From the NCBI GenBank assembly GCA_003663325.1, contig QMZT01000001.1:15366-79365 (forward strand): a stretch of DNA of 64,000 nt. Reading direction: 5' to 3'. Positions 1,262-63,628 of the stretch are shown here, in pieces. The notes under the pieces are model-generated. The model was not told where the DNA came from. It made no database searches and was given only the letters and a program-made list of their open reading frames with translations. The position numbers and the translations under genes were made by a program. The DNA is from Candidatus Aenigmatarchaeota archaeon (GTDB lineage Archaea > Aenigmatarchaeota > Aenigmatarchaeia > QMZP01 > QMZT01). Each line of letters begins with the position of its first letter. Positions within the stretch are counted from its first letter, which is position 1.

Positions 1262-1527
1262 TGTTGAGCTGGGGGTGCAGCTTTCCCAAAAAGGGAGGAA
1301 GCTCCACCCACCCAATAGGCAGCATCGCAAGATGCATGGCCGAGAGGCCATCTCTCAGGAAGCAGAAACGAACCCATGCATGCTATAGATGATGCATATC
1401 GCATATACATGAGCATGCAGTGGGGTGAAACGGTCCTGAGAGTGCCGGGTGCAAGCTGTTGCGCTTAGATAAATGCTGCAGCCCTTTTAATAAGGGTTAC
1501 AGAAGGTGGGCTATTCCCAGCACAACA
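1262..1527 (+). ncRNA. rnpB: RNase P RNA (compact archaeal form, about 266 nt)
   Basis: GC-rich island in a non-coding gap. 12-bp terminal helix (P1) pairs 1262-1273 'TGTTGAGCTGGG' with 1516-1527 'CCCAGCACAACA' (one mismatch). CR-I-like 'GGGAGGAAGCTCC' at 1293-1305. 'GGGGTGAAACGG' (J11/12-like) at 1422-1433. CR-V-like 'ACAGAAGGTGGGCT' at 1499-1512. Confidence 0.7.
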
Positions 1528-4023: not shown

Positions 4024-7000
4024 ATGAATCTGAAGCTCTTCTCAGCATTTATATTTACTTTATTGATGATTGGTTTGGTGGTGGCTGATACACCACCGCC
4101 AAAGATATTGCTTGTAGAGGATGCGCATTTCTGTGGTGGCTACTCGCCAACAGAAAAATGCACAAACGCACAAATAGAACCCTTCTATACAAAAGCTTTG
4201 GAAGCTAACGGCTATGAATACGATACGTATGTAGTTTCTGGTAGTAGTGATAATGGACCGGATTTAGAAACCCTTAGCAAGTATGATATAGTGATATGGT
4301 TTACTGGGGAGGATCATAAGAACACATTAACATCTGTAGATATTAATAATCTTCAACAATACCTAGACAATGGCGGAGCATTCTTTCTTACAGGTCAAGA
4401 TATAGGATATGATATATGGGACACTGCGTTTTATGGAGAATACTTGCATGCATTCTACTGTGCAGATAGTTCTGGTGAATATGATCATACCCTTGTAGGA
4501 ACAAATAATAATCCTATTGGAGATGGCCTTTTTCCTACTATAGACTCTACAATAAAAGGTGGTGCAGATAATCAATACTTTCCATCTGTAATATTTTACC
4601 GTGATGGCAAAGATATATATTTTCGCTACAACATGTTATCCTCAGAGTTTTACTATGAATACATTGATGCAGCTCTTATAATATGTGGAAACGGGAAAAA
4701 ATATGTTTTAAGGCAAAGCGTGCTGCCTGCTGCTATAAAAGCTAAAACCGCCACCTATAAAGTTGTTTATTTTGCATTTGGTTTTGAAGGTATAGATAGC
4801 GATGCAGATAGAAATGAAATAATGAAAAGGGTTATTGGGTATTTGAGCAGACCGAGGGTAAAGGGCACAAGGGTATTAGAGGTTAATGGGATACAGTACA
4901 ATCTCACTTGTGATAAAAGCCTAGATAAATGCTCCAGAATGCTTTATCCTTATCTATACTATACCTGCTATAATGATCAACTTTTTGGTAATATAACAGA
5001 TGTAGAGTTCTACGTCTATGACCAAAACAATAATCTTGTTAAGCAAGGAAAGCCAAGCTTGCAATATGATGCAAACAGCAACAAATGGTGGGGAATTGGT
5101 GTAATAATTATAAACGGGCTGGCTGATGGTCCTTATGTAGTGAAATTGAGATGTAAAGATAGCGATGGGTTTTGGAGCAAATTTGATGAAGTGAATCTAA
5201 CAATAGATAACACCTTTGATAATAAGCCAATTATAGATAGCGTGGAGGGTAAAACATCAACACCTATATATACAAATAAAGTTGAGCCAACAATAACTAC
5301 GACGTATCTTGCAAACAAAGAATTACCAGAGAAAATGCTCTTTTTGTGCTATAATTCTACTTCTATAATTAAAAACACCACCTTAGAATGGATAACATAC
5401 CAAGCCTCGTACAATTTCAATATAACAAATACATTTTATAATTGTTCATCAAGTGATGGCTTAAGAAGGGTTTATCTTTTTTATATGGATAAAGCTGGTA
5501 ACGTTATATTGCCAAAAGATGGTGATGGGTATAAGGATATTATTTTGGACAGGGTGAAGCCAGAGATACACTCAATAAGCCCTACAGGTTATATAAAAAG
5601 CGGAACGAATATAGCTGTTAATGCAAGTGATGGGTTGTCAGGTATAGCTACAGCGATATATAATAACGGTACCCATAACTTTACCTTTACACCAAATATA
5701 AGCTTTGATCCACACTGGCAAGTAGAGGGAATAAGCACGCTCAAGGTATGGATCACGGATAATGCTGGCAATGTTAGATACGCATCTTACAATTATATAG
5801 TTGACAACACACCACCGACAATAGATGTAATTGAGCCTGACAACAACAGCCTTACAAATAAACAAAGTATAGAGATAAGATTTAATGTAACAGACCAGGC
5901 TGGTGTAGATAACAACAGTATAAATGTGGTGGTCTCAAACGGAAGTATATATAGCTCTATATGCAATCAGATAAACAATGGTTATGCCTGCACATACCTA
6001 TGGAATACAACCAATCTCACATTCGGGAACTATACAATAAGGATATATGCGAGTGACAGCCTTAATAATAGCGCTTACGATATTATCAATGTAAAAATTG
6101 ATAGAATACCTCCCATTATTACAATAATACAACCGCCCAATGAGTATAATACAACCTCAAGCAACAATCTGCTAAATGTCAGTGCATACGATAACACAGA
6201 TATAGATTATGAAAGTGCATACTTCATATTTAAAAACTTAACCGCAGAGTACAATGAGTCTGCATACAAAGGCTCATGGAAACAGCTTACTTATTCTAAT
6301 GGGTATTTTATATCTACATTTAGTGTTGAGCTTGGGCTTAGTGATGGCCATTACAAGCTTTTGGTTTCAATAAATGATACTCTTGGTAATATGAACATTG
6401 CATGGGTAAATATAAGCATAGACAACACCCCTCCCCAAACCACAGACAATTCAAGCAGTGTAGATGTATGGTATAGAAGTGATCAATACATAAGCTTGAG
6501 TTGTAGTGATAATATGATGGGGTGTAATGAGACATACTATTGTGTAGCATCACAGCTATGCATACCATCAATAAAGGGAAATAGTACAAGCGTTACATGT
6601 AATGATGGCGATGAGTGTATATTGTATGTTTTTTACAAAAGCATTGATAAGGTTGGCAATGAAGAAAACATCAAGAGTTCAAACAAAATCAAGATAGATA
6701 AAAGAGCACCAACAATAACAATAGAGAACCCGACACAAGGAAGAGTATATTCAGGGATTATTGAGCTAAGGGCAACCATAAGTGACCACGGCTCTGGGGT
6801 AGATAATGCTTGGTATGAGATAATAAATGCATCAAATACAAGCGAGATAATAGCAACAGGTGCATTGCAGGCGCCACTCTATAATTCAACATGGAATTCA
6901 TCTAACTACACCTATGCAACATTGATATTCAAGGTATATGCAAATGATACCTTGGGAAATAACGCTACCGCAAACGTAACATTTGATGTAAATAATAAAA

Positions 7001-10000
7001 AACCGACAGCAACAATATATTATCCAAAATACATATTTATAGGAAAGGCTTTTAATCTGGATTTAAGGGCAAAGAGGGAAAATGGAAATCTATCTAATGC
7101 GAGCTACACAATCTTTAATGCAAGCGATATAGTTAAGACAAACACCACTACAGGAATAAACAAGAGCGAATTTAAGTTTTCAGATTTGGTAACTATTGAT
7201 ATACTTGCTGATGGAAACTATACCATTAACTTTACAGCATACGACTATGCTATACCACCTAATAAGGCATTTGATAGTGCATGGTTCTATGTGGATAAAA
7301 TACCACCGCAAACGATAGATAGTAGTGACCCACAAGAAAGATGGAAAGGCAGCGATGTATACATAAATCTTTCATGCTATGATAATGCCGCCGGTTGCGA
7401 GACACTTGTTTATTGCATAAACACAAGTAATCAGGATTGCCAACCAAACAAAAGTGTTTCTATAGATAAGAATATAAGCATTCTTATTTCATGCAACGAA
7501 GGAGATGAATGCATAAAGTGGATAAAATACTACTCCAACGACACGGTAAATAATACAGAAACATTAAAAGCCAGCTATGCAATAAAGATAGATAAGAAAG
7601 CCCCAATTACTGCAGATAACTCTTCAAGCGAATGGAAGAATGGCGATCAAATTATACAACTGAACTGCTCTGATACCGGCTCCGGTTGTAACGTAACACT
7701 TTACTGTATAGATGATACGGGGGCGTGTGTACCACAAAACATATATGAAGGGTATGTAAACTTGACATGTAATGATATATGCAAGAAATACATAAGATAC
7801 AGGAGTAATGATTCTGTAGGTAATCTGGAGCCTATAAAGACATCAAAGCTCATAAGAATAGACAAGTCCTTGCCACAAACGGCAATATCACCAAATTCAT
7901 CATACCTCCCAATCAACACGCCATTTTCCCTTTCTTGCTCTGATACAGGCTCCGGCTGCAATAAAACATACTATAAAATCATAGATAGCAATGGTATTTG
8001 TCCATCAACAGGCTATTCCGAAGGTGAAAATGGTATCGTAAGCTGTGATAATGGTGCAGTGTGCGAGAAAAGGATTTGCTACTATTCTTCAGATATGGCA
8101 GGAAATAAAGAAAATGTGAAAGTGAGTGGTATATTTAAAATCGATAAAGCACCCCCAGTCCTTACTGCTTTATACATTAATGTAACGGATGACACGATAT
8201 TTGGGGATAAAAGGGTTTTGAATGGAAGCATTATCAAGGTGTATGTAAACTTAAGTGATACTTCCAACGTTAGCTCAGTAAACGTTACAGTAAAAACACC
8301 AAGCAAATTATTCAATCTTACACTTTCCCTTGAAGATGGTAATTATAGCAACGGTACATGGAGCAATGTGCTTGTTGTTAATGAAACAGGTATATACAAC
8401 CTCACATATATTTATGCCCTAGACAGCTTTAACAATAAATTGGTAACTTATAGAGGTTACTATTTTCACTCTGTTGTACCAAGGCTTAATATCCTGCTAA
8501 ATAATAAAACCTTTGCTGATGCAGGAAAAACATATATATTGGAAATGAAAGCAAGCTTTAATATTACACTCATAAACCCCGTGTTAATTATTTATCTTCC
8601 ACCATTCTTTGAAAATAAAAGCGTTTATAAATGCACATTTTCTGGTGGTTGCGATATAACCAAATTTGGGGATGTTTTGCATGTAAACGCTAGCGGTTAT
8701 GGTACATATCTTAGCATAAATACAAACATCTTTGCAAATACAATAGCTAGTGATACAAATGTTAGTTGGAATACAAGCTACAATAATTTACAATTTAAGA
8801 ACAAAACGATTATATTGACACCACAGATCAACATAACTAATACGTGGTGCGATGGAAAAGCATGCACAGTTGATCAGAACAAAGTATTCAATCTCACAAT
8901 AGAGGTTAGCAATATCAAGAGTGACAAACATAGTGGCACCGCTTACAATATTACATTAAATATAACATTTCACAACGCCACCTCGGCTCTTGTACCTATT
9001 GGCGATCTCCCATCAAACTCCTCAGCTAACATAACAATCAGGGTTAATATAACCGAGGCGGGAAATAAAAGCATTAGCATGTTTGCATTTGATGGTACCT
9101 GTAGCTATAACTCAAGCAATACAACATTAATAATAGTTGTAAGGGATAAAGAAAAGCCAACAGTGGAGCTTGTGGAATTTGAAGATAGCTATGTAAACGT
9201 GAACGAAACGATTAATTATTATGTGACCGCACGAGACAATGTAGGCATAGGCAGTATTATTGCACAGATAAATGATAGCGAGGGTCTTGAGAGCAACTAC
9301 ACACTCTCACTTTTTGCAGGAAGTAAAGAGTATGGCATATGGAGATTAAGCTACGTTTATACACAAAAAGAAGGGATTTATAAGATAATGAAAATTTATG
9401 TAAATGATACAGCTGGCAATACACTTTCCTATACACCACCAATCAACGCTTCTGTGTTTTATGTTACAGCCTTTATATTAAATATGAGCCTTTCACCCCA
9501 AATATTAACAATAGGAGAAGGAGTCAATATCTATGTGAATATATCTAATAACGCATCACCCATAACAAATGTTTACGCAACCATAGTAAAACCCAATAAC
9601 TACACAAAAAGCTATGAGCTTAATTATGATGGATACGAAAATGGTAAATACATATATAGTTTGGAGTATACGAATACAACAACCTCTGGAAGCTATATAG
9701 TTAATCTAACAGTGAGAACAAAAATTGAAAAAAACGCAAAAGCCTATTTCTCAGTTCCTTACGGCTTTCCTTCCCTCGTCTCAAGTAGTGGCAATAACAT
9801 AAGTGTACCACCAAACACAAAATTTAACATTACATGGTTGATAAAACCTGTGAATGGAGATTTACTTAGTGTTAATGCAACCATATTTATAGAAAATAAA
9901 AGTGTTATCAATACATCAGAAGGATATAAAAAGTTTGTAGGTAACATCTATTGGGAGAAATATAAAGATAATGGAAAAATGTTGATGTGGGAGTTCAATG

Positions 10001-12198
10001 CCTCAGATGCGGGCGAAACAAATATTAGTTTGGTTGTAAATACAACAAATTCAAGTGCAAACATCTCAATAGCTATTAATATTATAAAGAGCGATACATT
10101 ACCACCCCGTATCCATAACGTTTCAATAAACAAAAACAAATTTAACCTTTATCAATATGCAATAATAACCGCTAATGCTAGTGATAACACTCTTATAAAA
10201 CACACCTCTCTGGAGATATCTCATAATAATTATAAGGTTAATATAAGCTCTGAACAAATAGGAGAAGGATTGTATAGGTTTACCTTTTCATCGATAAATG
10301 AAACAGGTAGTTATTGGTACAGGGTATGGGTTTGTGATGTTTTTGACAACTGCAATGTATCCTCTAGCTTCAATTTTTCTGCCTTTAATACATACACTGT
10401 TATAGCAAGTATAGACAAAACCAGGTATAATAAAGGCAGGAACGTTACGTTCTTACTAGAGGTATTAGATGTTAATAATATGAGTGTTGATAACTACAAA
10501 ACAACTTCTATCGTTAAGATAGATAATCCAGAAAGTGAGGTATGTGATGGTTATATAGACTCTGTAAAAAATGCTACATTCTACTATTTCATCTCACCCA
10601 GCGACTATCCAAATTCGGATAATGATGCCTGCTATTATGTGTTTATAAATGTCACCAAAAATGGAAATACAGGGAATGCGAGCCTTTCGTTTAATGTTTC
10701 AAAAAAATTGAACGTAGAGTTTATATCACCTCAGACGGGCGAATATGTACCTGTAGACACACCTGTTCTAGTTGAGATTAGTGTGAATGATGTAAATGAG
10801 AATGTGCTGGATAATGTCAGAGCCCGAGCATATTGCTTTGAATGTGGTGACAAGAATACTATACTTACCTACTATCCGCCACGCAGAACATATGTAAATT
10901 TCCAAGCATTTGATGCACCACAAACAGAAACAGGAGACTTTGCTATATTTGCATATGTAACAGATATCTATGATAATGATCAAGGTGAGAATCCTCCAAG
11001 GGTTGTACCTACCACAATAGAGAGCTCTGTACCACAAACCCAAGCGGCACAGGGCATAGGCGGTACTTCTTCTACCCAAGGGGCAAGTGGAGGAGAAGCA
11101 ACATGTAAATGCGAATTATGGAAAAATGTTGGCTGTGGAGCAAATAAGTGCAAAGCACACGAAATGTATCAAGTAAGGGTATGCGAGCCTGCTGGATGCG
11201 GTATAGAAGAAAGGTGTATAAGGCATAAAGAGTGCGAGCCAAAACGGGATTTTGTATTAAAGGTAAGTGAGCGATATATAAGAATTGGAAAGGGTTACAA
11301 TGCAAGCATCATCATATCTATAGAGAATACAGGCAACACCGCGCTAAACCTCACATTTTTCGTAAAAAAGGAGTGTTGTATAGTGCCAAATCCCGGTCGC
11401 ATTACGATTGACCCAAACGAAAGGGTAGAGATACCCATAGATATTCACGTCCCGCTCTATGAAAGGTCTGGGCAGTACATAATTATAATAGGTGCGAGCT
11501 CCGGGCTACTCAACAAAACCATTGCTATCGATATATTTGCAGCGGAAAGTCCTCTAACAAAAAGGTTTAACGCTCTTAGGAATATACTTAGAGACATAAA
11601 AAACGATATAAAGGAGTATAAAGATTCTGGTATTGATGTCTCAAAACTAGAAGAATTGGTAAGTATTGCTGAAGCGTATCTCAATAGATCACAAGAAAGT
11701 ATTATAAGGGATGATGTAAGTGGGTTAGAGACGTATCTGGATAAAATAAGTGAAAAGCTTGGAATGGCACAAAATGAGCTTGTCTATCTATGGATTTACA
11801 AGTTCCTCAATGAAAATAAGTGGAATCTTACTATAATTGCTATTCTTATATTCATATTCAGCTACATTATCTCTGAGATAATAATACCCTATTATAAACT
11901 TAGCAAGGAGTTGACAGCACTTAAGGAAAAAGAAAACACTTTAGTGCAATCAAGGCTGGAAACAGAGAAACAATACTTTACAAGAAGGATAGATGAGACA
12001 ACATTTAATAAAATGGTTATAGAGATACAACAAAACATATTAAAGGTTAGATCAAAGATAAGAAATAAAACAATTGAAAAGGAAGGGCTTATAAGAGCAA
12101 AGCTTAGGCCATCCTCCCTGCTATATTGGAGTGAAAGCATTATTTTAAGAATTGTTTCGCTCCTAAAGAATATTATCGATAAGGCTAAAGCGAGATAG
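4024..12198 (+). CDS. giant (2724 aa) membrane-anchored, glycosylation-sequon-rich surface protein with tandem beta-sandwich-type repeats
   Basis: Uninterrupted ORF. N-terminal signal/anchor 'LKLFSAFIFTLLMIGLVVA'. Very many N-x-S/T sequons. Recurring 'D-x-(A/L/S)-G-N' and 'D-x-x-SG(V/I)' repeat signatures. Four copies of a roughly 90-aa Cys module ('LSCSD..GC..YYC'). Cys knot 'CKCELWKNVGCGANKCKAHEMYQVRVCEPAGCGIEERCIRHKEC'. One C-terminal TM 'LTIIAILIFIFSYIISEIIIPYY' followed by a charged helical tail. Confidence 0.85.
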   Translation: MNLKLFSAFIFTLLMIGLVVADTPPPKILLVEDAHFCGGYSPTEKCTNAQIEPFYTKALEANGYEYDTYVVSGSSDNGPDLETLSKYDIVIWFTGEDHKNTLTSVDINNLQQYLDNGGAFFLTGQDIGYDIWDTAFYGEYLHAFYCADSSGEYDHTLVGTNNNPIGDGLFPTIDSTIKGGADNQYFPSVIFYRDGKDIYFRYNMLSSEFYYEYIDAALIICGNGKKYVLRQSVLPAAIKAKTATYKVVYFAFGFEGIDSDADRNEIMKRVIGYLSRPRVKGTRVLEVNGIQYNLTCDKSLDKCSRMLYPYLYYTCYNDQLFGNITDVEFYVYDQNNNLVKQGKPSLQYDANSNKWWGIGVIIINGLADGPYVVKLRCKDSDGFWSKFDEVNLTIDNTFDNKPIIDSVEGKTSTPIYTNKVEPTITTTYLANKELPEKMLFLCYNSTSIIKNTTLEWITYQASYNFNITNTFYNCSSSDGLRRVYLFYMDKAGNVILPKDGDGYKDIILDRVKPEIHSISPTGYIKSGTNIAVNASDGLSGIATAIYNNGTHNFTFTPNISFDPHWQVEGISTLKVWITDNAGNVRYASYNYIVDNTPPTIDVIEPDNNSLTNKQSIEIRFNVTDQAGVDNNSINVVVSNGSIYSSICNQINNGYACTYLWNTTNLTFGNYTIRIYASDSLNNSAYDIINVKIDRIPPIITIIQPPNEYNTTSSNNLLNVSAYDNTDIDYESAYFIFKNLTAEYNESAYKGSWKQLTYSNGYFISTFSVELGLSDGHYKLLVSINDTLGNMNIAWVNISIDNTPPQTTDNSSSVDVWYRSDQYISLSCSDNMMGCNETYYCVASQLCIPSIKGNSTSVTCNDGDECILYVFYKSIDKVGNEENIKSSNKIKIDKRAPTITIENPTQGRVYSGIIELRATISDHGSGVDNAWYEIINASNTSEIIATGALQAPLYNSTWNSSNYTYATLIFKVYANDTLGNNATANVTFDVNNKKPTATIYYPKYIFIGKAFNLDLRAKRENGNLSNASYTIFNASDIVKTNTTTGINKSEFKFSDLVTIDILADGNYTINFTAYDYAIPPNKAFDSAWFYVDKIPPQTIDSSDPQERWKGSDVYINLSCYDNAAGCETLVYCINTSNQDCQPNKSVSIDKNISILISCNEGDECIKWIKYYSNDTVNNTETLKASYAIKIDKKAPITADNSSSEWKNGDQIIQLNCSDTGSGCNVTLYCIDDTGACVPQNIYEGYVNLTCNDICKKYIRYRSNDSVGNLEPIKTSKLIRIDKSLPQTAISPNSSYLPINTPFSLSCSDTGSGCNKTYYKIIDSNGICPSTGYSEGENGIVSCDNGAVCEKRICYYSSDMAGNKENVKVSGIFKIDKAPPVLTALYINVTDDTIFGDKRVLNGSIIKVYVNLSDTSNVSSVNVTVKTPSKLFNLTLSLEDGNYSNGTWSNVLVVNETGIYNLTYIYALDSFNNKLVTYRGYYFHSVVPRLNILLNNKTFADAGKTYILEMKASFNITLINPVLIIYLPPFFENKSVYKCTFSGGCDITKFGDVLHVNASGYGTYLSINTNIFANTIASDTNVSWNTSYNNLQFKNKTIILTPQINITNTWCDGKACTVDQNKVFNLTIEVSNIKSDKHSGTAYNITLNITFHNATSALVPIGDLPSNSSANITIRVNITEAGNKSISMFAFDGTCSYNSSNTTLIIVVRDKEKPTVELVEFEDSYVNVNETINYYVTARDNVGIGSIIAQINDSEGLESNYTLSLFAGSKEYGIWRLSYVYTQKEGIYKIMKIYVNDTAGNTLSYTPPINASVFYVTAFILNMSLSPQILTIGEGVNIYVNISNNASPITNVYATIVKPNNYTKSYELNYDGYENGKYIYSLEYTNTTTSGSYIVNLTVRTKIEKNAKAYFSVPYGFPSLVSSSGNNISVPPNTKFNITWLIKPVNGDLLSVNATIFIENKSVINTSEGYKKFVGNIYWEKYKDNGKMLMWEFNASDAGETNISLVVNTTNSSANISIAINIIKSDTLPPRIHNVSINKNKFNLYQYAIITANASDNTLIKHTSLEISHNNYKVNISSEQIGEGLYRFTFSSINETGSYWYRVWVCDVFDNCNVSSSFNFSAFNTYTVIASIDKTRYNKGRNVTFLLEVLDVNNMSVDNYKTTSIVKIDNPESEVCDGYIDSVKNATFYYFISPSDYPNSDNDACYYVFINVTKNGNTGNASLSFNVSKKLNVEFISPQTGEYVPVDTPVLVEISVNDVNENVLDNVRARAYCFECGDKNTILTYYPPRRTYVNFQAFDAPQTETGDFAIFAYVTDIYDNDQGENPPRVVPTTIESSVPQTQAAQGIGGTSSTQGASGGEATCKCELWKNVGCGANKCKAHEMYQVRVCEPAGCGIEERCIRHKECEPKRDFVLKVSERYIRIGKGYNASIIISIENTGNTALNLTFFVKKECCIVPNPGRITIDPNERVEIPIDIHVPLYERSGQYIIIIGASSGLLNKTIAIDIFAAESPLTKRFNALRNILRDIKNDIKEYKDSGIDVSKLEELVSIAEAYLNRSQESIIRDDVSGLETYLDKISEKLGMAQNELVYLWIYKFLNENKWNLTIIAILIFIFSYIISEIIIPYYKLSKELTALKEKENTLVQSRLETEKQYFTRRIDETTFNKMVIEIQQNILKVRSKIRNKTIEKEGLIRAKLRPSSLLYWSESIILRIVSLLKNIIDKAKAR

Positions 12199-13770: not shown

Positions 13771-13807
13771 TTTAAGAATTATATAATTTTAGCTTAAAAA
13801 TGCCCCG

Positions 13808-13881
13808 GCCGGGATTTCCCATGCTTATTGGTTGCAGGATGCATCGAAACCCGCTGGTGGTTTCGATTTTGAACCCGGGTC
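13808..13881 (-). repeat. 74-nt segment (T arm + T-loop intron) identical to 62440-62513 (inverted orientation)
   Basis: Base-by-base comparison of the reverse complement of 13808-13881 with 62440-62513 shows no mismatch. Flanking bases differ on both sides. Confidence 0.85.
13815..13867 (-). other. tRNA-Glu intron 2 (53 nt, T-loop 59/60)
   Basis: Interrupts TTCAAA|...|T of the T-loop. Identical in sequence to the tRNA-Arg intron at 62454-62506. Contains the 9-bp hairpin ATCGAAACC/GGTTTCGAT. Confidence 0.65.
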
Positions 13882-13888
13882 TTCGGCT

Positions 13889-13955
13889 TTCCTCGCTTAT
13901 TTCATAGCATAGCGATGCATGCTCAACCCTTCCAAGCCATTTCATTATTCAAGCT
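13889..13955 (-). other. tRNA-Glu intron 1 (67 nt, canonical 37/38 position)
   Basis: A BHB can be drawn. Anticodon stem, bulge AA|A38, 4-bp helix CUUU/GAGG (two G.U), bulge CG|A, inner helix GCTT/AAGC. Confidence 0.7.
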
Positions 13956-14045
13956 CGAAAGGCCGATATCCTTGGCCGGACTAGACTACCGGGGCATAAA
14001 ATAGATAACTTATTTAAAATTTATATTTTTGAGCCTTTTAACTTA

Positions 14046-14840
14046 CTAAATCTTGGTATAGTAGCTTAGCTTTGCATTTTTAAGTGCATACCTGCTGTGT
14101 TTGTTAAAATCGGGGAGTAAGAGAAATGGAGATGTTATATTTACTTGTATTGTAGCTGAACATGGTTTGCTGTGCTTCTCTATAACGCCTGCCTTTATTT
14201 CATAACCATCCTCTATCCTATCTATTAACACATCACCAAGATTAACAGCGCTGCATGCACTCCTTCTTATCTCTTTCAGTATCTTGTTACCTTTTTCTAC
14301 AAGAGGCATTATATTTATGCTATAATTTTTAGTTGGATGAAATGCTAGTTTTAGGGTTACTCTTTCACCCCCGAGTGGATAGTTTTCAACAAATGTGATA
14401 TACCTTTTTGCCAGATCAATTCTAATTTTATCCTCCATTTTAAGCTCTATATCTCTTATATCATATACCGGTAATTTTACAAACCTTCCCATGAAATTGA
14501 AGCCTGTGAGTGTATATCTATTCAAATTTTTTATGGTCTCATTCTTCATACTTGCTATAACATATGCATTATCAAGCTCCCCTTCCCATACCTCTTTACC
14601 AAAACCACTAGCTAGCAGTGCTAGTAATGCATTATAGATGGAATAATCTAGTGCAGTATCCATGTAAATCTTAGCCGAATATAATGCATTCTTAGCCATA
14701 TATATATCTTTCATAACGCTAACCTCTACCCCAGATTTCATAAGAAATGTTTTATTTATAGCCATGAAAATCATAGCTGAAAGGATGAATATTGCTATGA
14801 TTATGTATAGGTTTGTTTCAAAACCCTTTCTTTTTTTCAT
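14046..14840 (-). CDS. pilin-like N-terminus protein, function unknown (last gene of hydrolase operon)
   Basis: 'MKKRKG|FETNLYIIIAIFILSAMIFMAI': basic leader ending in Gly, then Phe and a hydrophobic helix. 4-nt overlap with the upstream M23 gene. Confidence 0.6.
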   Translation of the reverse strand: MKKRKGFETNLYIIIAIFILSAMIFMAINKTFLMKSGVEVSVMKDIYMAKNALYSAKIYMDTALDYSIYNALLALLASGFGKEVWEGELDNAYVIASMKNETIKNLNRYTLTGFNFMGRFVKLPVYDIRDIELKMEDKIRIDLAKRYITFVENYPLGGERVTLKLAFHPTKNYSINIMPLVEKGNKILKEIRRSACSAVNLGDVLIDRIEDGYEIKAGVIEKHSKPCSATIQVNITSPFLLLPDFNKHSRYALKNAKLSYYTKI

Positions 14841-15790
14841 GAAATCACCACCCTGCCTTTATTCCCGTTAGGAAGGGGTATATCAAATTCATAAACCACC
14901 TGTTTCTTTGATACAATCGCTTGCTCACAATTATCTGGCGGTGAAACAAAGTAATGGCAAGGGTTTAATGCTTTACCCCTGCTGTCTATGATACCAAAAT
15001 GCAGATGTGGACCAGAGCTATAACCCGTATTCCCACATATGCCCAATCTTGTATTACTATTAACCCTCTCCCCTACTCTCACATATACATTTTTGAGGTG
15101 GTAATACACTGTATATATATTTCCATACCCCTCAATATAATGCCTTATCTTTACACTGTTTCCCAATCCATCGTTACATGAGCAACTATGCATACCCCAC
15201 TCATTCTTACTCTTTATCGTGCAATCAATACCTTGATTTTCCTTACACCCTGTGGTAACACTTTCAACTATACCGCTCAAAGCAGGGTAAACATCATCAC
15301 CATCACATTTAAAATCCACACCCCGGTGAAACTCATAACCAAATTTTAGTGCACGCAGCCCATAACCAGAAGTTATTACTACATTCCTTTTATGCAATGG
15401 CAAGCCTAGTACGATACCTTCTATTTTTTCACTTTCTTTATTATACCCTTTCCAAACCCTTCTTACTACCTTACCACCTTCCATAATTACAAGATGATAA
15501 TCATTTCCAAATAATAATGCCAGTGTGTCATTTACCCACTTTTCATATCCCGTCTTGTTATTGTAAAGCATACCAAGAGCCTGCATACCATTTATTCCAC
15601 CTTTTTCTCTGGAAAGCAGCGCTAATATATTATTTCCCTTATCGCTTAGCCTAAACGCAACACTTAGCTCGTTTCTCAACGAGAATAATGAGCCTTTGTT
15701 TACAAAAGAAAGTATGCTAAGAAAAAGGTAACCTATCATGAATACCAAAAATAATACTATTATATCTGCAAAACCCTTATATCTTAACAT
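14837..15790 (-). CDS. M23-family (LytM-type) zinc metallopeptidase with pilin-like/TM N-terminus
   Basis: N-terminus 'MLRYKG|FADIIVLFLVFMIGYLF'. C-terminal M23 motifs 'FHRGVDF' (HxxxD) and 'GNTGYSSGPHLHFGI' (HxH). Confidence 0.8.
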   Translation of the reverse strand: MLRYKGFADIIVLFLVFMIGYLFLSILSFVNKGSLFSLRNELSVAFRLSDKGNNILALLSREKGGINGMQALGMLYNNKTGYEKWVNDTLALLFGNDYHLVIMEGGKVVRRVWKGYNKESEKIEGIVLGLPLHKRNVVITSGYGLRALKFGYEFHRGVDFKCDGDDVYPALSGIVESVTTGCKENQGIDCTIKSKNEWGMHSCSCNDGLGNSVKIRHYIEGYGNIYTVYYHLKNVYVRVGERVNSNTRLGICGNTGYSSGPHLHFGIIDSRGKALNPCHYFVSPPDNCEQAIVSKKQVVYEFDIPLPNGNKGRVVIS

Positions 15791-16553
15791 ATAACCTACC
15801 TACATGTACCTCCCTTTCAACAACTATACAAATCCTGTTTCTTTTATTTTTACATTCATTCATACTTTTTGCAAATTTTAGTACAGCTAGAGTATTTTTC
15901 ATAATATTTGCCCGGGTAAATAAGTACACGCTTGCATTACCTCCACTTTTATAAATACCATCTATATACTCTTTAAATCTCTCTACATCATCGCTATTAC
16001 GTATAACAAATGTGCTTGCATTACCAGCTTCAATTCTCTTGATTTTCAAAAAAAGATTGTTATTTTTAGAATAAATGCTAAGCATATAGCTTCTGTTCTT
16101 TTCAAATAAGATATCGTCGCTAGCAACAACATCTTTGTACTCTATCGGAACGAATATTTCATGCCATGAATATGACGAATGCTTCTTTATTTCTCTTTTA
16201 ACCTCTACAACCTCTCTTAAAAACTCATCGCCAATCCCAAATTTCCATTGCTTGCCATTTTCAAGATCTGTTATTGTTATTGTTAGCGGTTGTGGTAACA
16301 TACACTTCTCTACAATATCCTTCTCGCTTATTGTATCGAGCACAGCTGAACTTATGCTTCCATTGCCAAGTTGTTGAAGACAATGTTTTATAGAATGTGC
16401 AATCTTAAATGCATCCACCCCTTCTGTAGGCATTTTTATTCTCCCCTCCAGTTTAATGAAATGTTCAACAAAGTACATTGAAAGCAAAATGCTGGCGGTA
16501 ACAAATATGATGGTGCTGATTATAACTTTAGCATCTGCATATCCTCTTAGCAT
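15777..16553 (-). CDS. pilin-like N-terminus protein, function unknown
   Basis: 'MLRG|YADAKVIISTIIFVTASILLSMYF'. 14-nt overlap with the downstream gene and 7-nt overlap with the upstream gene. Confidence 0.55.
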   Translation of the reverse strand: MLRGYADAKVIISTIIFVTASILLSMYFVEHFIKLEGRIKMPTEGVDAFKIAHSIKHCLQQLGNGSISSAVLDTISEKDIVEKCMLPQPLTITITDLENGKQWKFGIGDEFLREVVEVKREIKKHSSYSWHEIFVPIEYKDVVASDDILFEKNRSYMLSIYSKNNNLFLKIKRIEAGNASTFVIRNSDDVERFKEYIDGIYKSGGNASVYLFTRANIMKNTLAVLKFAKSMNECKNKRNRICIVVEREVHVGRLYVKI

Positions 16554-17503
16554 ACCTCACACCTCAATGAAAATCTCTTGGAAAAGCATTTCTCGTAATA
16601 ACAAAGGGTTCTTTTCACATACACCTTTGTCTCTTCTTTACATTTTTCATCAATATGCCTTTCCACAATTTCCCAACAATTAGAAGTGGTGCAGTATTTA
16701 TTTACAAGCCATTCTATATTCTTTGGACCACAATTGTAGGATGCAAGCGTAAGCATGATTTTGCTGTCTCCATAATCTTTAAACTTGTTTATAAGCTGCG
16801 ACAGATACCTTACACCACCTTCAATATTCTCCTCTGGATTATAAGCATCTATGCCCAAGCTATCTGCTGTTGTTGGCATTATCTGCATATAACCAATTGC
16901 CCCTGCTGGCGAGACAAGGAAACCATCTTCATCACAATGCCTAAAATTGCTCTCCGAAGCCATCACCGCCATTACAAGGGCTTTATCAACATTATATATG
17001 TTTGCATACTTCTCTATTTTCGCCTTTAACCATTCATCACCAGGCTGCATGCATCGCCATTCTTTTGATATAACTATGCCTCTCTGGTCCTTGGTCAAAA
17101 GCACATGTGTAATATTCTCCAATCTCTCACACTTGCTCCCTTTGCACTCTATAGCAAGTTTTCCTGTAAATAGAACCTTTTTACTTTTTCCAACAATCTT
17201 ACCATCCTTTATCAATTCAAGCATTATATAATGGCTGCCTTTCTTGCCAAGGCTTATAAATGGGCTGAACCTGCCTATCTCTATGTTGTAAGTATTGTTA
17301 AATTTCTTTTCAATTACGCCATAATCAACATCTGATAATGCACTTAAATAGACAGCAAGTATATTAGCATCAAGCTCAACCATAATTTTTGGTACCATGC
17401 CTATAGTTGGTTGTAGAAGCTTTGTAAATATCGCGACCAATAAAAGCATAGAAACTAATACGGTGCCAATAATGATAAAAGTCATTTTTATACTTGCTAA
17501 CAT
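16547..17503 (-). CDS. SLT-domain lytic transglycosylase (GH23-like) with N-terminal TM anchor
   Basis: N-terminal helix 'MTFIIIGTVLVSMLLLVAIF'. SLT motifs 'VMASESNFRH' (catalytic E-S), 'GAIGYMQIMPTTA', 'NIEGGVRYL', 'LASYNCGP'. Confidence 0.8.
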   Translation of the reverse strand: MLASIKMTFIIIGTVLVSMLLLVAIFTKLLQPTIGMVPKIMVELDANILAVYLSALSDVDYGVIEKKFNNTYNIEIGRFSPFISLGKKGSHYIMLELIKDGKIVGKSKKVLFTGKLAIECKGSKCERLENITHVLLTKDQRGIVISKEWRCMQPGDEWLKAKIEKYANIYNVDKALVMAVMASESNFRHCDEDGFLVSPAGAIGYMQIMPTTADSLGIDAYNPEENIEGGVRYLSQLINKFKDYGDSKIMLTLASYNCGPKNIEWLVNKYCTTSNCWEIVERHIDEKCKEETKVYVKRTLCYYEKCFSKRFSLRCEVC

Positions 17504-28502: not shown

Positions 28503-28515
28503 TTTTATAAAATCA

Positions 28516-28600
28516 CGCTGGGGCTGGGATTTGAACCCAGAAGTCCACAAGGGACACCAGCTCTCCAGGCTGGCGCGTTACCTGGTTCCGCCACCCCAGC
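28516..28600 (-). tRNA. tRNA-Ser(GGA), intron-less
   Basis: Acceptor GCTGGGG/CCCCAGC. Anticodon stem CCAGC/GCTGG with loop CTGGAGA. Long variable arm GTCC-CTTGT-GGAC. T arm CTGGG-TTCAAAT-CCCAG. Discriminator G. Confidence 0.9.
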
Positions 28601-28814
28601 ATAATGCTTTGCAATGATTATATATAATTTGGAATCGTTAATTTTAATTCATTTAAGATTAAAATTGTTAGTTCTATAATAATAGGAACAATATGTTTGG
28701 CTCCTATTTTCACAGCAAAAAATGCCATAATCTATACAAACTATCAATGGCCTGTTATAGCTTATTATTCCCATCGAAGCTAAATTTTTTATTAACTCTT
28801 GAAAATACATTTTT

Positions 28815-60925: not shown

Positions 60926-61783
60926 ATGCTTGATAAATTAATTATGAAGCTTTTGATTGTAACAACAGAAAAGGATAAATCATGCGAAAGGATAATAGAG
61001 GAAGCTGTTAAAAGAAAGATCATAGTTAGGAGGGTTTTTTACAGTGATATGTGTTTGCATAGGCTGGAGGCAAAAAATTTTACCAAGTTTGATTTTTGCA
61101 TATTGAGAGATCCCTATAACACAGGGAAAGACTTCTCCATCTATCTCAGAACAATTATGCGTTTCTTTAAAGGCAATGTATTAGATTTTAATACGTACAT
61201 GCACTATCCATTTTATGAAGACAAGCTCTTTCAACATCTTTTGTTTAGGGATATCGCAAGAATGCCTCGCTTTTGGCATTATAATTCCAATGTAATGGTG
61301 GATATAGACACATTTCCAGTTGTTGTAAAAAAGAGAATTGGAAGCAGAGGAAGGGATATTTTCTTGATAAAAAATGAAGGTGAGCTGAGATCGTTTTTAT
61401 CTGGAAAAGAAGTTCATGAGTATCTTTTTGAGGAGCGGATAAAGGTTAGGAAAGATATAAGAGTTGTGGTTTTGGGTAACAAGGTTATTGGTGCTGTGGA
61501 AAGAGAGGTAAGATTTAAAGAAAGAGCCGGCTACAGAGGTATTGGTGTTAAGGTATCTAGCAGATACAAGATTCAAAAAGATATGAAGGAAAAGGCGTTA
61601 ATAGTAGCTAAAAGGATGGAATGTGATTTTTGTGGAATAGATTTCATAGTAGATGATAATGGAAAGGGATACCTGTTAGAATGCAATGTTTCGCCACAAT
61701 TCACATCTTCAGAGCGTGTACTAAATATAAATATAGCAGGAAAATTGGTGGAGTATATAGTAGGAAAAATCAAAGAGCAATAA
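60926..61783 (+). CDS. ATP-grasp ligase (RimK/LysX-like)
   Basis: 'VVVKKRIGSRGRDIFLI', 'FEERI', 'IRVVVLG', 'CGIDFIVDDNGKGYLLECNVSP'. Confidence 0.7.
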   Translation: MLDKLIMKLLIVTTEKDKSCERIIEEAVKRKIIVRRVFYSDMCLHRLEAKNFTKFDFCILRDPYNTGKDFSIYLRTIMRFFKGNVLDFNTYMHYPFYEDKLFQHLLFRDIARMPRFWHYNSNVMVDIDTFPVVVKKRIGSRGRDIFLIKNEGELRSFLSGKEVHEYLFEERIKVRKDIRVVVLGNKVIGAVEREVRFKERAGYRGIGVKVSSRYKIQKDMKEKALIVAKRMECDFCGIDFIVDDNGKGYLLECNVSPQFTSSERVLNINIAGKLVEYIVGKIKEQ

Positions 61784-61807
61784 GTTATTGGGATGGGGCT
61801 GCTGGGA

Positions 61808-61878
61808 TTTCCGAGCCTTTCATATTTCTTTCCCGAGGGTTTCTTTGCGGAAGCGTTAGCTCCCGTAAAGAAAGGCTC
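61808..61878 (-). other. tRNA-Trp intron 2 (71 nt, T-loop 59/60)
   Basis: Textbook hBHBh'. T stem CTGGG/CCCAG, bulge AA|T, 4-bp helix TTCG/CGGA, bulge AA|G, 8-bp inner helix AGCCTTTC/GAAAGGCT. Confidence 0.8.
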
Positions 61879-61899
61879 TTCGAACCCAGGTATGCGGGT

Positions 61900-62011
61900 A
61901 TCCCTTTATCATCAGGCATGCTTCATTATACCCATCAGCGCTCCAGCATTTTTATATTTCTTTGGCTGAAGCCTTTCTTGAGGAAGCATTAGCTCCCGTA
62001 AAAAGGCTTCA
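61900..62011 (-). other. tRNA-Trp intron 1 (112 nt, 37/38)
   Basis: Relaxed BHB: bulge AT|A38, helix C32-G/U33.G/C34-G, bulge AG|T. A 9-bp hairpin GAAGCCTTT/AAAGGCTTC follows immediately. The intron carries a C/D-like module. Confidence 0.7.
61909..61950 (-). ncRNA. C/D-box-like methylation guide module inside tRNA-Trp intron 1 (predicted target C34)
   Basis: Minus strand reads AATGCTGGAGCG-CTGA-(20 nt)-TGATGA. CTGGAGC is complementary to tRNA positions 31-37 (GCTCCAG). The 5th nucleotide upstream of CTGA pairs with C34. Confidence 0.5.
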
Positions 62012-62200
62012 CTGGAGCCCGCCAGGATGCCAAGCTACCTCACAGCCCCATGTACGATTAACTTATTTTTCTGAATTTATTTAAATTTTTTAAGATATTA
62101 ATTAAATAGTGATGTGATGCCGTCCCAATGGAAAATAGAGGGATGAGGAAAGAAGGTTTTTCTAGTTTTGTTTCTGTTAAAGTGATAAAGGAGGTGAAAA

Positions 62201-62386: not shown

Positions 62387-62439
62387 GCGTAGAGGGCATG
62401 TAGGGTAGTTTGGATATCCTGAGGGCTTGCGGAGCCCTT

Positions 62440-62513
62440 GACCCGGGTTCAAAATCGAAACCACCAGCGGGTTTCGATGCATCCTGCAACCAATAAGCAT
62501 GGGAAATCCCGGC
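62440..62513 (+). repeat. 74-nt segment identical to 13808-13881 (inverted orientation)
   Basis: See the partner entry. The segment covers 3 nt of variable region, the full T arm, the 53-nt intron and the first acceptor base. Confidence 0.85.
62454..62506 (+). other. tRNA-Arg T-loop intron (53 nt)
   Basis: Identical to tRNA-Glu intron 2. Bulge AA|T beside the T stem, 3-bp helix TTC/GGA-type pairing, then hairpin ATCGAAACC/GGTTTCGAT (relaxed BHB). Confidence 0.65.
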
Positions 62514-62533
62514 ATGCCCATATGCCATGGAAG

Positions 62534-63628
62534 ATGAAGGCTTTGGTGGATGATTTTTTTGTAAAAGAAATAAGCAAGGAAATTGAAGAAAGTGAAGATG
62601 GGGAGTATTTATGGTTTAGATTGAGGAAGAAGAATTGGGATTTTTATAAGTTATTGAAGGTTATGGCAAGAAGGCTTGGGGTCTCTATAAAAAGGTTTGG
62701 ATATGCAGGGGTTAAGGATAAATTTGCTGTGACCGATCAGCTCATCTCTCTTTGGAAAGGTAGAGAGGAAGAGGTGAGGAAGATAAGACTTAGAGATGTT
62801 GAATTTTACGGGTTTAGAAGAGCAAGCATGCCGTTAAGCTTGGGTTTGCTTAAGGGCAACCAATTCAAAATAGTAGTCAGAAACATAAGAGAGAAGGAAA
62901 TAGATAAGATCGGTAAGAATGTTGAGCAAGCTAAGAAGGAAGGGGTACTAAATCTTTACGGGGAGCAAAGGTTTGGTAGCAAGAGATATGTTAATGCCAA
63001 GGTTGGCTATTTAATCGTTAAAGGCAAGGTAAAGGATGCCGTTATTACTTACTTAACTGAAACAGGAGCAAGTGAGCCAAAGGAAACGAGGGAGGCGAGA
63101 ATGTTATTAAAGAATGAGCTGGATTTTAGAAAGGCTTTAAAAATATTTCCCAAACACCTTAAGTACGAGCTTGCAATCCTTAATCACCTTGCAAGGTACG
63201 AAAATGATTATGTTGGTGCGTTAAGGGCATTGCCAAAGTACCTAAGAAAGATGTTTGTTCACGCATATCAAACAGAATTATGGAATAAGATTGCAAAAAA
63301 GGCACACAGCGTAGCTGCGCATAATATAAAAATCCCAATAATAGGTTACGAGACTAATTTATCAAAATACAAAGAAATTGAGGGCATAGTAAGGGATGTA
63401 ATGGGAGAAGAAGGGATAGGGGCTGCGAGCTTTAAAATAAATCAGATACCCGAGCTTTCTAGCAAGGGGGATGAAAGGTACATGCTTGTTTTTCCAAAAG
63501 GTATAAAATTTAGCGTTGGAGAAGATGAACTGAACGATGGCATGTTAAAAGCAATCTTTGAATTTTATGCTCCTAAAGGAAGTTACGGAACTGTTATTGT
63601 TCAGCAATTCATGAAAAATGTTGCCTAA
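62534..63628 (+). CDS. truD: tRNA pseudouridine(13) synthase TruD/Pus7 family
   Basis: Start moved past the tRNA to 'MKALVDDFFVKEI' (or Met at 62522). Catalytic 'FGYAGVKDKFAVT', plus 'NLYGEQRFG'. Confidence 0.8.
   Translation: MKALVDDFFVKEISKEIEESEDGEYLWFRLRKKNWDFYKLLKVMARRLGVSIKRFGYAGVKDKFAVTDQLISLWKGREEEVRKIRLRDVEFYGFRRASMPLSLGLLKGNQFKIVVRNIREKEIDKIGKNVEQAKKEGVLNLYGEQRFGSKRYVNAKVGYLIVKGKVKDAVITYLTETGASEPKETREARMLLKNELDFRKALKIFPKHLKYELAILNHLARYENDYVGALRALPKYLRKMFVHAYQTELWNKIAKKAHSVAAHNIKIPIIGYETNLSKYKEIEGIVRDVMGEEGIGAASFKINQIPELSSKGDERYMLVFPKGIKFSVGEDELNDGMLKAIFEFYAPKGSYGTVIVQQFMKNVA

Follow-up and report, generated by a model that had tools for sequence, protein, structure and literature searches.

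A tRNA-Trp gene with two predicted introns in an Aenigmatarchaeota-like archaeon, one of them a copy of a repeated T-loop element

In a 64,000-nt stretch of archaeal DNA (contig QMZT01000001.1, positions 15,366 to 79,365; hereafter the window), we found a tRNA-Trp gene that occupies 256 nt of the minus strand (62049..61794) and is interrupted by two introns, one in the anticodon loop (intron 1) and the other in the T-loop (intron 2), as seen by direct reading and by ARAGORN on the joined exons. Archaeal EndA recognises the bulge-helix-bulge (BHB) structure and cuts after the second nucleotide of each bulge, and RtcB joins the exons and can circularise the introns. We consider the locus to be, with a probability of roughly 0.85, a tRNA-Trp(CCA) gene that is functional and belongs to an Aenigmatarchaeota-like DPANN archaeon; its transcript would be cut by EndA at two BHB sites and joined by an RNA ligase to give a 73-nt tRNA. 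The T-loop intron is a copy of a repeated element common to several tRNA genes. The window corresponds to 74821..138820 of contig k141_930189 (139,351 nt) in ENA assembly ERZ27227322, from which the 10 kb upstream of it were also taken.

A preliminary description of this DNA had proposed, without giving the strand, that removal of 112 and 71 nt would yield a normal 73-nt tRNA-Trp(CCA), and ARAGORN accepted exactly this product as a normal cloverleaf. The acceptor stem has 7 bp, the D stem 3 bp and a U.U pair, and the anticodon and T stems 5 bp each; the product also has a 9-nt D loop (A14, G18G19 and an extra residue 17a), a 4-nt variable region and the T loop UUCGAAU. The conserved residues U8, A14, G18G19, U54U55C56 and A58 were all found by direct reading. 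The features of a tRNA-Trp are in place as well: the anticodon loop CUCCAGA with a purine (G) at position 37, the G1-C72 pair, the discriminator A73, and a CCA end that is not encoded. Read along the minus strand, the gene begins with GGGGCUGUGAGGUAGCUUGGCAUCCUGGCGGGCUCCAG and ends with UCCCAGCAGCCCCA, and the exons are predicted to join at ...CUCCAG|ACCCGC... (G37-A38) and ...GGGUUCGAA|UCCCAG... (A59-U60). An element resembling an archaeal TATA box, TTTAAATA, lies at -36..-29 and may be the promoter, and a T-rich tract follows the gene. A 103-aa open reading frame (ORF; window 61681-61992, plus strand) runs antisense over most of the gene; it is almost certainly spurious and a potential trap for gene callers.

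Table 1 Positions of the tRNA-Trp gene parts, the motifs within its introns and the other tRNA genes of the window
Feature	Position	Strand	Remarks
TATA-box-like element TTTAAATA	62078..62085	-	29-36 nt upstream of the mature tRNA-Trp 5' end; direct reading; inferred promoter
tRNA-Trp exon 1	62012..62049	-	38 nt; standard positions 1-37 with 17a; ends ...CUCCAG, anticodon CCA, G37
Intron 1	61900..62011	-	112 nt at canonical 37/38; relaxed BHB
Family-A-like segment in intron 1	61953..62010	-	9-bp stem GAAGCCUUU/AAAGGCUUC around hairpin GGGAGC-UAAU-GCUUCC
Candidate guide UGCUGGAGC-G-CUGA	61935..61948	-	9 nt complementary to G31-G37 and the first two intron nt; direct reading
C-box-like and second D-box-like motifs, AAUGAAGC AUGC CUGAUGA	61909..61930	-	non-canonical arrangement; direct reading
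tRNA-Trp exon 2	61879..61899	-	21 nt; positions 38-59: A38, CCCGC, variable AUAC, T-stem CUGGG, UUCGAA
Intron 2 (family A)	61808..61878	-	71 nt at 59/60; strict hBHBh'
Conserved hairpin UUUACGGGAGCUAACGCUUCC in intron 2	61869..61849	-	part of family A
tRNA-Trp exon 3	61794..61807	-	14 nt; positions 60-73: U60, CCCAG, CAGCCCC, A73; CCA not encoded
tRNA-Glu(UUC)	13801..13995	-	67-nt intron at 37/38 (13955..13889) and 53-nt intron at 59/60 (13867..13815)
tRNA-Ser(GGA)	28515..28601	-	intron-less; sole window tRNA reported by ARAGORN/Rfam
tRNA-Arg(GCG)	62394..62520	+	53-nt intron at 59/60 (62454..62506), family B

Of the two introns, the T-loop intron has the clearer splicing motif. We scored every pair of cleavage sites in the locus for an outer helix, a 4-bp helix, 3-nt bulges and an inner helix, and the pair after A59 and before U60 was the top candidate among all of them. 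Its outer helix (h) is the T stem, CUGGG/CCCAG (5 bp). The central helix, UUCG/CGGA, has 4 of 4 pairs (U54-A, U55.G, C56-G and G57-C; the 3' strand CGGA lies at 61813..61810) and is flanked by the 3-nt bulges AA^G and AA^U, and the inner helix (h'), AGCCUUUC/GAAAGGCU, has 8 bp between 61877..61870 and 61821..61814. With a 4-bp central helix, opposed 3-nt bulges, an h of 5 bp, an h' of 8 bp and a canonical tRNA after joining, intron 2 has every element of the strict hBHBh' motif, and each detail of it given in the preliminary description proved correct. When the intron was shuffled 200,000 times with the exons fixed, only one shuffle reached a 4/4 central helix together with an inner helix of at least 8 bp. 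In the RNAfold structure of the T arm plus intron 2, the T stem and inner helix both form, and the BHB appears between them as an internal loop of symmetric 6+6 type (z = -3.8 relative to shuffles). Such a strict motif could be cut by any archaeal EndA.

In the precursor, the T stem would act as the outer helix, and U54-G57 would pair with the CGGA near the 3' end of the intron to form the central helix. One bulge would consist of A58, A59 and the first intron nucleotide and the other of the last two intron nucleotides and U60, and the intron's own 8-bp stem would close the motif from inside. The tRNA would therefore contribute near-universal parts only (the T stem, U54-R57, A58, N59 and U60), and the intron would bring the YGGA-AA 3' end and the closing stem.

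The anticodon intron is different, and the word "textbook", used in the preliminary description for the motif built from the T-loop, holds for the T-loop intron only. Cuts after nucleotides 38 and 150 by linear count give a relaxed hBH motif outside the strict definition: the central helix CUCC/AGGG has 3 of 4 pairs, the bulges read AG^U and AU^A, the outer helix GCGGG/CCCGC has 5 bp, and no inner helix adjoins (h' = 0). Because the D loop holds the extra residue 17a, linear nucleotide 38 is standard position 37, so that the first junction, described before as 37/38, is right in standard numbering and is 38/39 by linear count. An exon 1 of 37 nt by linear count would end in U37 and leave only 2 of 4 central pairs and no outer helix, and it was rejected. 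The junction adopted here leaves G37, in agreement with the G37 derivatives found in archaeal tRNA-Trp (PMC7668247), and is the only one with a workable motif among the nearby junctions tested; EndA would cut at this canonical site through the relaxed motif.

Over its first ~58 nt, intron 1 can be aligned with intron 2, and this 5' half is a diverged copy of the same element, which we call family A. A possible mini-intron nested in this copy (gene positions 51 and 75; central helix 3/4, outer helix 7, inner helix 5) was treated as chance, as it has no equivalent in intron 2. The intron is also present in an assembly independent of the window: a contig from a vent metagenome (X5) spans 61901-62068 and covers exon 1 and all of intron 1 except its last nucleotide. 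It differs from the window by one substitution and a 2-nt insertion, and the insertion brings the family A part nearer to the consensus.

A different origin can be considered for the 3' half of intron 1, namely that it is a degenerate box C/D guide for 2'-O-methylation of C34, as in euryarchaeal tRNA-Trp introns; we regard this as possible but somewhat against the odds. Under the N+5 rule of box C/D guides, the modified nucleotide pairs with the fifth nucleotide upstream of box D or D'. In intron 1, a duplex of 9 bp (7 Watson-Crick and 2 G.U pairs) ends 1 nt before a CUGA and places C34 opposite the fifth nucleotide upstream of this box; we estimate the chance of such a complement with a box at ~1e-4 per box. 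The motifs follow in the order C-like (G^UGAAGC), D' (CUGA), an 8-nt loop, C'-like (AUGAAGC), AUGC and D (CUGA). This duplex is present in the minimum free energy (MFE) fold of the intron, and the G103A variant in the vent contig turns one of its G.U pairs into A-U. In a sediment metagenome (run X3), the tRNA-Trp intron of another organism starts with G^UGACGG-12 nt-CUGA. Derivatives of G37 and the methylated nucleotide Cm34 are present in archaeal tRNA-Trp (PMC7668247; for Cm34 also PMC4090602). In Euryarchaeota, the intron of tRNA-Trp harbours a C/D RNA that guides modification at Cm34 and at position 39 (Omer 2000; Clouet d'Orval 2001; Singh 2004; all cited in PMC4090602). Like those introns, the one described here is a long 37/38 intron in tRNA-Trp(CCA) with C34 at N+5 of a CUGA.

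On the other hand, the complementarity may be a mere helix between anticodon and intron with no guide function, and such pairing is common in pre-tRNAs for structural reasons. The C-like boxes read UGAAGC and not UGAUGA (consensus RUGAUGA), and their sequence is also where family A units behind other tRNA genes have their 5' end (see below). The spacers are 67 and 4 nt long where ~12 is expected, and a clean kink-turn could not be drawn. Intron 1 had no Rfam match at E <= 10; in the window, a pattern search found no canonical C/D small RNA, and no gene for L7Ae, Nop5 or fibrillarin was present among the ORFs. Unlike the euryarchaeal guides, intron 1 has degenerate boxes, non-canonical spacing and a family A repeat in its 5' half, and it lacks the guide for position 39. 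Intron 1 thus has two CUGA boxes and the complementarity that places C34 at N+5, whereas canonical C boxes, a clean kink-turn and the ~12-nt spacers are absent, and membership of intron 1 among the euryarchaeal-type guide introns is, as judged from its sequence, unproven. The contig from run X3 (6.9 kb) carries a related tRNA-Trp exon 1, with 5 mismatches to window 62009-62049, and the intron start there has the canonical order of C box, spacer and D'.

Next we compared the tRNA-Trp gene with the other tRNA genes of the window. We searched for genes whose T arm is split and whose acceptor strands match, and this identified four tRNA genes in all; tRNA-Glu(UUC) and tRNA-Arg(GCG) are missed by default tRNA finders. 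As stated in the preliminary description, three of the four have an intron at 59/60, the exception being tRNA-Ser(GGA). The 59/60 introns of tRNA-Glu and tRNA-Arg, whose genes are 48.6 kb apart, are identical at 53 of 53 positions and define family B. Their BHB is relaxed, with a central helix of 3/4 (A57 unpaired) and no directly adjoining inner helix, and the 37/38 intron of tRNA-Glu has a strict BHB (central helix 4/4, outer helix 5, inner helix 5). A metagenome contig (X4) skips precisely the 53 nt of the Arg-type T-loop intron. The further proposal of a genome-wide intron-rich tRNA set is plausible, and it is demonstrated for these three of four window tRNAs and for related contigs. Within the family B intron lies a hairpin with a 3' strand, GGGUUUCGAU, that is similar to a T arm. 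The ORF of TruD, the tRNA pseudouridine-13 synthase (62522-63628, plus strand), starts 2 nt past the 3' end of tRNA-Arg, and a longer listed ORF from 62438, which overlaps tRNA-Arg, is an over-extension of it.

The window has two occurrences of the core hairpin of family A, UACGGGAGCUAAYGCUUCC, one per Trp intron, so that the family occupies two tRNA positions, 59/60 and, as the diverged copy, the 37/38 intron. We scanned public metagenome contigs with this core and found family A in further tRNA genes. In tRNA-Leu(UAA) (L011), a 71-nt intron at 59/60 is identical to Trp intron 2 at 71 of 71 positions; tRNA-Arg(UCG) (L008) has a copy at 59/60 that is 96-97% identical, and tRNA-Ser(UGA) (L013) has an 82-nt variant at the same site. 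Across tRNA identities the similarity is thus high, 95-100% among Trp, Leu(UAA), Arg(UCG) and Ser(UGA) for family A, with family B shared by Glu and Arg(GCG), and a segment of ~88 nt, T arm plus 71-nt intron, is identical in at least two different tRNA genes. The core was absent from viral contigs, in which 31 matches to a 15-mer of exon 1 were regarded as chance.

Taking the window and the related DPANN contigs together, all 11 T-loop intron loci found (10 distinct, since L003 and L012 have the same sequence) have the same design: the 5-bp T stem as outer helix, UUCR paired with YGRA at the 3' end of the intron, and bulges that read AA^N and AA^U, the latter being AC^U in L003 and L012. They sort into three repeated families and one single form of 145 nt, and the T stem is constant per family (CUGGG in A, CCGGG in B). 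Because the tRNA's share of the motif is near-universal T-arm sequence, one intron sequence would be portable among tRNAs. The copies found are in line with this: Trp and Leu(UAA) have the same intron, as do Glu and Arg(GCG), and the copy in Arg(UCG) is 96-97% identical to that of Trp.

Family A also lies outside tRNA genes. Copies of 55-60 nt begin 2 nt past the 3' end of tRNA genes at three loci (L006, L007 and L010), followed by related units of ~65 nt. Behind tRNA-Arg(UCG) (L008 2611-3013, Ga0164318_10000555), a block of "family A intron + 14-nt 3' exon + family-C-like unit" is repeated in tandem with a 171-nt period (2.4 copies, 97% identical), and since three identical 3' exons are present, a transcript of this locus might in principle be spliced to any one of them. 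The tRNA-internal copies keep the CGGA/UGGA-AA 3' end, whereas the trailer copies of L007 and L010 lack it and that of L006 is degenerate. The trailer copies are located at L006 5985-6130, L007 3626-3828 and L010 8843-8917, where the host tRNA genes bear a different T-loop intron, of family C; the L006 array also holds a degenerate "GGAAA + 3' exon" remnant. We then aligned to the region the Logan contigs from DNA metagenomes of marine, sediment and hydrothermal-vent origin, four to six in number. In run X1 the depth was 109-124 over the intron 2 core and 6-7 in the unique flanks (~15-20x), and contigs leave the family A repeat into at least 5 different upstream sequences.

The central part of the element extends beyond this group of contigs. 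A scan of species-representative genomes, a collection that does not include the window's own genome, with an exact 19-mer of the core gave five matches, three bacterial and two in DPANN archaea. The bacterial matches do not extend and are within chance (~9 expected in 596 Gb by our own estimate), and they were discarded. One DPANN match is in a metagenome-assembled genome (MAG) of Nanoarchaeota in GTDB (L003 7380-7525), where the core of 27 nt, UUUACGGGAGCUAACGCUUCCNCAAAG, which folds into a hairpin around a UAAC loop, is found with one mismatch just inside the 145-nt intron at 59/60; this intron has a perfect BHB (UUCG/CGAA, inner helix 6 bp). In the other, an Aenigmatarchaeota MAG (L002 4736-4761), 26 nt of the core with one mismatch lie in a repeat-rich trailer behind tRNA-Ser. 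Outside the core, kept almost exactly in both, the sequences are unrelated to family A. This conservation may reflect transfer from one DPANN phylum to another, or a function that depends on the sequence itself, such as protein binding. The tRNA-Ser of the latter MAG (L002 4531-4648) has an apparent ~30-nt insert after acceptor position 7 (GCUGGGA|UCUCCC...|...GGCCGAG).

How the copies came to reside in different tRNA genes may be considered in two ways, since the pattern could reflect spread at the DNA level in which either the intron transposes by itself or gene conversion carries along a segment of "T arm + intron", and the data are compatible with either. A bolder proposal is that the T-loop introns are a mobile family of BHB elements for which the universal T-loop (UUCRAAU) already provides half of the endonuclease substrate, so that they are able to enter any tRNA at 59/60; we hold it to be doubtful. 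If it holds, the trailer and tandem units and the "intron + 3' exon" modules could be a source or a by-product of the spread, and the anticodon intron of tRNA-Trp would be a chimera of a family A element and a remnant Cm34 guide.

The repeats also raise the question of whether the tRNA-Trp gene is a pseudogene inactivated by insertions resembling miniature inverted-repeat transposable elements, with a functional intron-less copy elsewhere in the genome. Some observations agree with it: the inserts belong to a family that is also found outside tRNA genes, in 3' trailers and tandem arrays, and standard tRNA finders miss the gene, the unspliced sequence having neither an ARAGORN match, even with the intron option, nor an Rfam tRNA match at E <= 10. 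An intron-less tRNA-Trp(CCA) had been named beforehand as an observation that would count against the gene; we looked for a second tRNA-Trp in 74 kb of the contig (the window and the 10 kb upstream) and found none, this being a part of the genome. However, no exon stem or conserved residue is damaged, and a canonical tRNA results when the exons are joined. The position of the insert is precisely that at which a strict hBHBh' forms, and the 3' end required for the motif is retained in the copies inside tRNAs. The same design interrupts Leu, Arg, Ser and Glu genes, not all of which are dispensable, and the gene with intron 1 is conserved in the independent vent metagenome. We therefore regard a pseudogene as unlikely.

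It is more improbable still that the family A repeats made the assembler join pieces of different tRNA genes, which the ~88-nt identity between genes and the breaking of the Logan contigs of all runs inside the repeat would favour. The acceptor strands on the two sides of the introns pair without a mismatch (GGGGCUG/CAGCCCC), and so do the halves of the anticodon stem that intron 1 separates, as a chimera would rarely provide. The independent vent contig runs through exon 1 and nearly all of intron 1, and contigs of run X1 connect intron 2 with the unique sequence on the left and exon 1 with that on the right.

Returning to a functional, spliced gene as the preferred reading, several points weigh against it. 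The motif of intron 1 is imperfect, with a central helix of 3/4 and no inner helix, and its MFE fold favours an alternative long helix that would mask the 5' site, in which G31-G37 and the first intron nucleotides pair with UGCUGGAGC, ~64-72 nt into the intron, around the 9-bp hairpin. The family A copies are so alike (95-100% identical, with an invariant hairpin stem) that the internal structure of the intron gains no support from covariation. Sequencing runs were searched for RNA data covering the locus, and none were found. As the search for tRNA-Trp spanned 74 kb, an intron-less copy may exist elsewhere. Finally, no gene for EndA, RtcB, L7Ae, fibrillarin or Nop5 is present in the window or the 10 kb upstream, so that the machinery is assumed; for EndA (tRNA_int_endo), this applies to ~60 window ORFs and to the precomputed Pfam annotation of the upstream part.

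As to the enzyme, three T-loop introns in four tRNAs had been taken to imply an endonuclease with broad positional tolerance. The strict hBHBh' at 59/60 does not by itself require one; a better basis is the relaxed geometry of both Trp intron 1 and the family B introns in Glu and Arg (central helix 3/4, no inner helix), and because of these motifs an EndA of broad specificity seems probable. This is in line with a report that EndAs of DPANN archaea with the L3 loop accompany many disrupted tRNA genes (PMC5829648).

The gene content of the window fits a DPANN archaeon. It includes ribosomal proteins L1, P0 and P1, NurA/Mre11/Rad50, an archaeal RNase P RNA (1264-1525, plus strand; Rfam RF00373, 131.8 bits), an ORF of 2,724 aa (4024-12198, plus strand) with a faint Big_13 match, and a cluster with an M23 peptidase and an SLT lytic transglycosylase (14837-17503, minus strand), which are murein hydrolases of bacterial type. 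Such hydrolases are often present in DPANN archaea. All named matches of P0 (annotated as L10) are to Ca. Aenigmarchaeota (= Aenigmatarchaeota), at 54-58% identity, and the best match overall, which is not among these, is 67% identical; for TruD, the named Aenigmarchaeota matches are 43% identical and the best overall is 49%. An orthologous tRNA-Trp was also sought by synteny: the closest TruD homologues (46-49% identical) do not lie beside tRNA genes, and the synteny record look-up for the RimK-like neighbour gene returned nothing. Within the 10 kb upstream are genes for a homologue of the RuBisCO large subunit and for a LigT / 2H-phosphoesterase of the 2',5' RNA ligase family (L048 14130-15395 and 19026-19568). 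LigT / 2H-phosphoesterases act on RNA ends of the type that EndA produces.

Both Crenarchaeota and ARMAN-2 are known to have introns at 59/60, some of them strict, as well as genes interrupted two or three times, and ARMAN-2 EndA cleaved 59/60 introns in vitro (PMC3239211). ARMAN-2 is likewise a DPANN archaeon with a T-loop intron at 59/60; its Pro gene combines a strict hBHBh' with more than one intron, and its Cys intron was cut in vitro by the cognate EndA. There are also differences. The ARMAN-2 introns are short (13 nt in Cys) compared with the structured 71-nt intron here, and the second intron is at 53/54 rather than at 37/38. The ARMAN-2 enzyme is of the epsilon2 type and the lineage here is Aenigmatarchaeota-like, and a repeated intron family, present here, is not known to be reported for ARMAN-2. 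For Thermoproteales, the presence of near-identical introns in tRNAs that are not related was explained by transposition (Fujishima 2010, Mol Biol Evol 27:2233, as given in PMC4090602). Those hosts are Crenarchaeota/Thermoproteota, whereas the host of families A and B is a DPANN archaeon. Unlike in Thermoproteales, the copies described here concentrate at 59/60, where the T-loop supplies half of the motif, and they are also found in 3' trailers and in tandem "intron + 3' exon" modules, with one nested in another intron. A literature search of incomplete coverage returned no report of such intron families, trailer copies or a conserved 27-nt core for Aenigmatarchaeota or other DPANN archaea.

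A tRNA-Trp with two introns is therefore of an already known kind; what goes beyond the textbook is an intron that is a repeated element, a chimeric anticodon intron and a core found across phyla. Default annotation sees only one of the four tRNA genes in the window, so that the tRNA sets of DPANN archaea obtained with default tools will look incomplete, and because tRNA-Trp is a single isoacceptor, its apparent absence could be misread as genome reduction or host dependence. The locus shows why 59/60 recurs as an intron site, as the invariant T stem and T-loop already form the outer helix and contribute one strand of the central helix and the larger part of each bulge. Identical copies in a single genome, together with the trailer copies, extend the evidence for the spread of tRNA introns from Thermoproteales to a DPANN lineage, and the sequences of these families are concrete material for studying the mechanism by which BHB introns are gained.

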